From: Longimicrobiales bacterium
GTDB taxonomy: Bacteria; Gemmatimonadota; Gemmatimonadetes; Longimicrobiales; Gaopeijiaceae
Direction: 5' to 3'
Assembly (NCBI GenBank): GCA_965116905.1
Contig: OZ220732.1
Location: 128,001 to 192,000, forward strand
Length of the DNA stretch: 64,000 nt
Of the stretch, positions 41,496-41,954 are shown one piece after another. The stretch's first letter is position 1. Each line of letters begins with the position of its first letter. The translations under genes were made by a program, and so were the position numbers. The notes beneath the pieces were generated by a model. It did not search any database and was not told the origin of the DNA. It was given only the letters and a program-made list of their open reading frames with translations.

Positions 41496-41954
41496 ATGAG
41501 CGACATCGTCTACGAAGCCAGCGTCGGGATCGAGCGCGTGCGCGGCCCCGAACGGCTTGCCTACATCCCGGCCCACGAGGGCGCCGTCGAGTTCGGCGTG
41601 CACGGTGCGATCGCCGAGCACTACGGCGTCCGCCCGCGAACGGAGACGTCGACCACCCTCGACTACGTGATCGCCGCAACCGGCGGCTGACTCGTCGGCA
41701 CCTTCGGAGGCGTGCTGGAGGCACGCGGGATCGATGCGTCGGGAGGCAAGCTCACGGCGGAAGTGCACGGCAGCGTCGGCAAGGACGACGGCGTTCTGGT
41801 CATTCGGCGGATTCACTGCAAGTACCTGCTGAAGGCGGGCGACGCCGACGGTAGCGCCGTTCAGCGGGCCTTCGAACTGCACCCCATGCGATGTCCCGTC
41901 TACCGGACGCTGCATCGATGCATCGAGATCACGACGGAGTTGGCGATCGTGTAG
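41496..41954 (+). CDS. OsmC/Ohr-family peroxiredoxin with in-frame TGA (candidate selenocysteine), 152 aa
   Basis: Track ORFs 41496..41690 and 41712..41954 are in the same frame. Read-through gives LDYVIAATGG-U-LVGTF...HPMRCPVYRTL. RBS AGGAG. Confidence 0.75.
41710..41726 (+). promoter_or_regulatory. Candidate bacterial SECIS hairpin
   Basis: GCGTGC-TGGAG-GCACGC, apical loop about 25 nt after the UGA with G at loop position 2. Confidence 0.45.

Follow-up and report, generated by a model that had tools for sequence, protein, structure and literature searches.

A candidate OsmC-fold selenoprotein with an in-frame UGA at the first cysteine position in a Longimicrobiales bacterium

The window analyzed here is a 64,000-nucleotide stretch of DNA from a Longimicrobiales bacterium (contig OZ220732.1, positions 128,001 to 192,000), and positions given without a further prefix refer to it. 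On its forward strand, a frame of 152 codons runs from an ATG at 41496 to a TAG ending at 41954 and is interrupted by one in-frame TGA at 41688-41690 (codon 65). A Shine-Dalgarno-like AGGAG (41481-41485) lies 10 nt 5' of the ATG, and GGAG or AGGAG recurs upstream of many homologs. An original prediction, made from the letters of this DNA, described two same-frame open reading frames (ORFs) parted by a single TGA in the context DYVIAATGG-TGA-LVGT, with a second Cys motif, CPVYRTL, left intact. The translated frame bears out both points, the Cys of that motif (Cys133) being encoded by TGT at 41892-41894. Annotation pipelines had been expected to split such a gene, and they do: under translation table 11 the frame breaks into two ORFs, one of 64 and one of 80 amino acids, and both fragments are present as separate proteins in public collections. 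A scan of positions 40500-43400 for promoters and terminators found none.

The gene lies among others on the same strand. Directly upstream is a gene for a 186-amino-acid hydrophobic protein with no Pfam or NCBIfam match (40856-41416), and directly downstream is a D-amino-acid-oxidase-like gene (Pfam DAO; 41891-43195, start uncertain) whose product has, by eye, a twin-arginine-like N-terminal stretch. Further along, at 43202-46293, Pfam matches indicate a fusion of a cytochrome c domain with a possible outer-membrane barrel, and a multiheme cytochrome c gene comes next, a possible extracellular electron-transfer module. In a tblastn search of 193 loci, 29 retained the upstream membrane gene beside the family gene, 26 retained the D-amino-acid-oxidase-like gene, and 21 the cytochrome c gene, in each case among close relatives; among these 193 loci we found no neighborhood shared beyond the closest relatives and no indication of a substrate. 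D-amino-acid oxidases make H2O2. Because the neighbors are shared among the closest relatives alone, a functional link between oxidase-derived H2O2 and the gene studied here is unsupported beyond that group.

The coding pattern was claimed to continue past the TGA, and a dicodon score trained on the genome agrees, with values of 0.78 before the codon and 0.85 after it; thus, the coding pattern extends across the TGA. Contigs from two public runs, one of which is possibly the source sample, carry codon 65 unaltered and without a differing letter. An assembly error as the source of the TGA was ruled out by these public-run contigs, which carry the same codon. The runs that contain this DNA are mostly labeled sponge metagenome. 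The other of the two runs is an RNA run; its contig depth over the region is flat and it may contain DNA, so it was not taken as evidence of transcription.

The nearest relatives are from Longimicrobiales (Gemmatimonadota). A check for homologs with either a conserved TGA or a Cys codon at this column had been proposed, and both kinds were found. The TGA is present in 80/80 of the best 80 of 355 confirmed relatives (52-95% identity), which come from two phyla; none of these loci has TGG, TAA, or TAG at the column, and none has another internal stop within the match. TGA also occupies the column in all 30 loci fetched from Acidobacteriota. When metagenomes were searched with a pattern for Cys codons, 63 loci were recovered, all of them homologs with TGC or TGT at the column; the set, selected for Cys by the search pattern, gives no frequency. 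A nonsense mutation, a pseudogene, or a sequencing error might be suspected from the fact that TGA is the commonest stop in the genome and from the two fragments in databases. However, the same TGA across all 80 of those best loci, the recovery of the codon in independent contigs, and the covarying hairpin and selA co-occurrence described below make such an origin exceedingly improbable. A conserved split gene, in which two separately made peptides reassemble, could in principle use the GTG at 41712 to start the 80-amino-acid piece. The break would, however, interrupt the central helix right at the catalytic column, with the catalytic residue and codons 66 to 72 lost; moreover, the Cys homologs are single chains, and the conserved stop is always TGA. 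We regard this arrangement, too, as having next to no chance of being correct.

Databases treat the family in a characteristic way. Among the best 120 matches in protein collections, 87 are fragments that begin just past the column; of the 33 full-length homologs, 24 show W at it. When the 150 best of 848 cluster representatives were compared, 34 stopped exactly at the column, 22 began just after it, and 63 of the 87 that span it had C. Several of the W proteins also show W at the expected gene end, followed there by a C-terminal extension; we infer that the W in these records reflects mis-translation with UGA read as W. Genuine reading of UGA as Trp (or Cys), by reassignment of the code or by suppression, would also account for the W in those 24 proteins. 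Against it, TGG was found in 0/80 genome loci (again the best 80 of 355), the extensions are what mis-translation would be expected to produce, and the sole UCA-anticodon tRNA found in the genome is tRNA-Sec. In addition, TGA is the stop codon of 1604 out of 2636 gene-like ORFs, the upstream gene (41414-41416) among them; it is therefore a normal stop here, as originally stated, and the code is not reassigned. This reading is very improbable.

The genome encodes the machinery for selenocysteine (Sec). The search for selA, selB, selD, and tRNA-Sec that had been proposed as a check found all four over curated cut-offs (497.6 bits, 308.2, 373.3, and 79.7, respectively), and the catalytic motif of selD likewise contains an in-frame TGA. 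A genome-wide scan found other genes with an in-frame TGA at Sec-type motifs; six of them were fetched, and each matches a Pfam family in an alignment that crosses the TGA or extends up to it (two AhpC/TSA, two CMD, one MerB, and one molybdopterin oxidoreductase). The probable remaining selenoproteome is located at C1:641802+, 3656670+, 3903242-, 1303924-, 3674310+, 3369960-, and 3690576-, and comprises SelD, a formate-dehydrogenase-like molybdopterin protein, two AhpC/TSA proteins (UxxC), two CMD/AhpD-like proteins (CxxU), and a MerB-like protein. Elsewhere on C1 (1296478-1298432), 17 tRNA genes are arrayed within ~2 kb.

Across genomes, the family occurs together with this machinery. In our survey of 301 genomes of the same phylum, 90 had matches, of which 4 with weak matches alone were set aside; each of the remaining 86 has strong matches that include one containing the TGA. 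All 86 also have a selA match, and the family is present in 0/56 genomes without selA, against a selA background of 245/301; this co-occurrence was cross-read by eye, and related genomes are not independent. Among 201 Acidobacteriota genomes, the family occurs in 32, of which 31 have selA; the single exception has selB and tRNA-Sec.

Downstream of the UGA, a predicted bacterial SECIS element spans 41710-41726 on the forward strand, with a stem of 6-7 bp and an apical U-GGA-G loop that starts 25 nt after the UGA. The published model of bacterial SECIS elements, as given in the Fig. 2 legend of PMC13188914, specifies a 4-16 bp stem, a loop of 3-9 nt with G in its first two positions, a distance of 16-37 nt from the UGA, and a minimum free energy of at most -7.5. 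The hairpin lies within each of these ranges and has a folding energy of -9.7 kcal/mol. That energy is insignificant for the hairpin alone (z-scores of -0.3 to -1.0), and a SECIS-like filter also passes 89/1604 ordinary TGA ends, 69/900 TAG ends, and 8/132 TAA ends. The genome-wide filter is also insensitive, because half of the 6 other probable selenoprotein genes (3) escaped it. The hairpin GCGTGC-TGGAG-GCACGC does follow the TGA as originally described; taken alone it does not exceed chance, and it is conservation and covariation that make it significant.

All 6 pairs and the GG of the loop are kept in 81/81 and 21/21 TGA genes, versus 1 of the 60 Cys genes that could be scored (3 of the 63 were too short). 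In a fixed-register test, the hairpin is kept in 19/30 Acidobacteriota TGA genes; in several of the 11/30 that do not fit, the stem may be shifted or bulged. A Val/Ala difference at codon +8 is accompanied by a compensatory, synonymous change in the Ala codon at +11: all 32/32 genes with GTG at +8 have GCA at +11, and all 45/45 with GCG at +8 have GCG at +11. The background frequency of GCA elsewhere is 93/1307. Leu at +9 is likewise encoded by CTG in 77/77 genes, compared with 337/762 elsewhere. In the paralogue clade described below, the neighboring pair covaries instead (A-T in 15, G-C in 6). For 27 chosen sequences, 162/162 cells of the stem are paired, a value as high as which was reached in 0/500 shuffles, while slid controls gave 4-72%, and RNAalifold predicts the same helix unprompted. 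All of these comparative counts stem from few evolutionary events. The original proposal of an OsmC-family selenoprotein came with two refuting conditions, and both are contradicted, since the genome has the full Sec machinery and all 80 close homologs have the TGA; the Cys homologs, the SECIS covariation, and the co-occurrence with selA support the proposal further. On these comparative sequence data UGA65 is very likely recoded as Sec.

The read-through protein belongs to the OsmC fold. It matches Pfam PF02566 with 49.5 bits (cut-off, 27.5) over residues 55-148, a span that crosses the TGA. An AlphaFold model computed from a 53-row alignment, with residue 65 entered as Cys, has a pLDDT of 96 and a pTM of 0.89 and places residue 65 within a long central helix (residues 54-76). 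Structures of OsmC, YhfA-like, and Ohr proteins are the top matches to the model by Foldseek and VIA-align (the best has a Z of 15.1 and an rmsd of 2.2 across 139 aligned residues), and a search of the ESM Atlas returned generic OsmC clusters only. By profile alignment, residue 65 corresponds to the Cys of 1ukk and 1ml8, which places the predicted Sec at the first, peroxidatic-type Cys column. The frame, the Pfam match, and the fold prediction are all consistent with a single OsmC/Ohr-fold gene (41496-41954) whose UGA is read through.

Conservation across 180 family proteins points to a set of candidate active-site residues. Cys133 of the CPVY motif, the predicted resolving cysteine, is C in 179 of the 180 and X in the remaining one, so that the two redox-active Cys-type positions of Ohr/OsmC proteins are both found here, as U65 and C133. 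Within the UxxGT motif, G68 and T69 are invariant (180/180), as is Asp56 (41661-41663), which stands 9 residues before the Sec/Cys column, like the Glu of the YhfA-like 1ml8. A clade-specific segment, GVHGAIAEHY (G34-Y43; 41595-41624), contains His36 (176/180) and Tyr43 (173/180) and in the model forms a short helix over H37-43. Arg20 (41553-41555) is R in 128/129 TGA-form and 3/51 Cys-form proteins, a contrast that is confounded by kinship. The triad Glu of Ohr and OsmC, located 10 residues before the peroxidatic Cys, was not found in the 180 family proteins, in which position 55 is L, I, or V.

The genome has a second family member (C1:1253904-1254368, reverse strand; locus L103:1480-1944) with 32% identity to the first. 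This paralogue has a TGA at the same column and a hairpin of the same type, and many relatives carry both paralogues; within the paralogue clade, TGA occupies the column in 21/21 genes, among them 20/20 fetched members. A quick tree built from 100 dereplicated rows separates the family from other OsmC-domain proteins by a long branch (2.2 changes per column; SH-aLRT, 99), and Cys forms are scattered within the family. A single clade of Cys forms was rejected (p-AU, 1.4e-5; LG+G4, with three long rows omitted). One Cys gene with TGC (L164:1075-1557, forward strand) retains the full hairpin and is placed among Sec genes, which suggests a recent change from Sec to Cys. The simplest reading would be an ancestral Sec state. 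A third, unrelated OsmC-domain clade also has TGA at the same first-Cys column (GA-TGA-TSMT / GS-TGA-MSMT; L230-L242), in 13 genomes of one family of the same phylum. This clade is nested among Cys-containing relatives (SH-aLRT, 99) and has its own hairpin, TCGCGC-TGTAY-GCGCGA, in 13/13 members, one of which scores 60.8 bits on NF041052, below the cut-off; its position suggests another independent gain of Sec from Cys.

OsmC-like selenoproteins have been predicted before, from the Sargasso Sea survey in 2005 (PMC1088965) and again from GOS data (PMC2398784). A 2026 catalogue lists one such family (PF02566, UxxT, MCS5647933.1; PMC13188914 Table 1), and its accessible part gives no OsmC-fold selenoprotein as experimentally verified. 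The NCBIfam model NF041052 (OsmC_like_Se) presumably describes this published protein. The clade studied here resembles the published type in its OsmC fold, in the position of its predicted Sec (the first-Cys column, within the central helix), in a second Cys near the C terminus, and in having been predicted from genomics alone. In contrast, the published sequences available for comparison (2 Sargasso, 5 GOS, and 1 deep-Sep) have GFULLT together with an SDEP-GG segment, and those that are full-length also have GCFAE, whereas the clade here has GGULVGT, the GVHGAIAEHY segment, and CPVY, and its motif is UxxGT rather than the UxxT of the catalogue table. NF041052 (cut-off, 95 bits) gave no match to our protein at an E value of 0.1; the best of 53 family members reached 7.5e-10, and 17 further family proteins scored 27.2 bits or less. 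By score or motif, then, the clade is not a member of the published family. Because none of the 301 genomes of the phylum has an NF041052 member over the cut-off, this separation is drawn from scores and motifs rather than from a tree. Our literature search, whose coverage was incomplete, found no paper describing the clade, members of which have possibly been counted under the general name "OsmC-like"; the text and supplements of Peng 2016 do not mention OsmC.

Two groups of Cys-containing proteins are also comparable. Like the Ohr/OsmC thiol peroxidases (TIGR03561 and TIGR03562), the protein has the fold (Foldseek E values of 4e-9 to 3e-6; VIA Z of 11-14) and a pair of redox-active positions, of which the second lies within a CP motif. 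Unlike them, it has a predicted Sec in place of the peroxidatic Cys, lacks a Glu at the triad position, which in Ohr is 10 residues before the Cys (Glu51/Cys61; PMC5962072), and shares 11-17% identity; its TIGR03562 score is 15.9 bits against a cut-off of 85.8. It resembles YhfA-type proteins (COG1765, NF008009/PRK10738, PDB code 1ml8) in lacking the triad Glu while having both Cys-type positions, and in an acidic residue 9 positions before the first Cys, a GGC-like context, and a VIA Z of 14.1. However, NF008009 is weakly matched by only 4 of 53 family members (best E value, 4e-5), the YhfA-like Cys gene of the same genome (C1:1444255) lies far off in the tree, and the His/Tyr helix is an extra feature of the clade here. 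The biochemistry of YhfA proteins is uncharacterized according to PMC8945050.

We consider it highly probable that the locus is one gene in which UGA65 is decoded as Sec through SelB, tRNA-Sec, and the hairpin, yielding a 152-residue OsmC-fold protein that is likely a Sec/Cys peroxidase. Binding of a SECIS element by SelB with Sec-tRNA, followed by insertion of Sec, is an established pathway. In the proposed scheme, SelB carrying Sec-tRNA would bind the hairpin at 41710-41726 and insert Sec at codon 65. By analogy with the family, the protein would then act as a homodimer with active sites at its interface, in which the selenolate of Sec65 reduces a hydroperoxide, after which an Se-S bond would form between Sec65 and Cys133, and lipoylated proteins or an AhpD-type reductase would re-reduce the enzyme. 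The Ohr/OsmC family has peroxidase activity with a lipoyl-dependent mechanism, as outlined in section 4.2 of PMC8945050 and in PMC5962072. A redox role for the Sec65/Cys133 pair is very probable, and a hydroperoxide as the substrate, proposed by analogy, is slightly favored. Because the triad Glu of the characterized Ohr/OsmC peroxidases is absent, peroxidase activity stands as a prediction. A selenol is ionized at neutral pH, and we speculate that the Ohr/OsmC Arg-Glu pair might for that reason be dispensable; the clade's own conserved Arg20, His36, His42/Tyr43, and Asp56 might serve in its place.

It is also possible, although we hold it to be the less probable option, that the selenoprotein is not a hydroperoxide peroxidase and that Sec65 and Cys133, with His36, His42, Asp56, and Arg20, have some other redox or binding role, for example in thiol-disulfide or persulfide transfer or in metal binding. 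The missing triad Glu, the unique near-invariant His, Tyr, and Asp residues, and the very long stem branch between the family and other OsmC-domain proteins fit this option, as do the best structural matches (2onf and 1ml8), which are titled putative or structural-genomics proteins, and the retention of two divergent paralogues in many genomes. On the other hand, both redox-active positions are kept as in Ohr/OsmC, the characterized members of the fold covered by PMC8945050 and PMC5962072 are peroxidases, and the genome's other predicted selenoproteins are largely of peroxide-defense types. A broader proposal, which we put forward as doubtful, is that the family may be an old, separate, mainly Sec-based OsmC lineage with its own active site (Arg20, His36, His42/Tyr43, and Asp56 replacing the Ohr/OsmC triad), a gain of Sec independent of that in the published family, duplication into two Sec paralogues, several losses of Sec to Cys, and a reaction other than hydroperoxide reduction. 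If this were true, then together with the third TGA-containing clade, the same OsmC cysteine would have turned into Sec at least three times.

The preferred reading of a Sec-decoding OsmC-fold gene would add a widespread selenoprotein subfamily that a curated model misses and whose members are split by annotation or wrongly translated with Trp. Because this small protein occurs naturally with either Sec or Cys, has switched between the two several times on the tree, and has a SECIS element that decays in the Cys forms, it would make this clade a convenient test of both the benefit of selenium to an OsmC-type active site and the evolution of a SECIS element within a gene.
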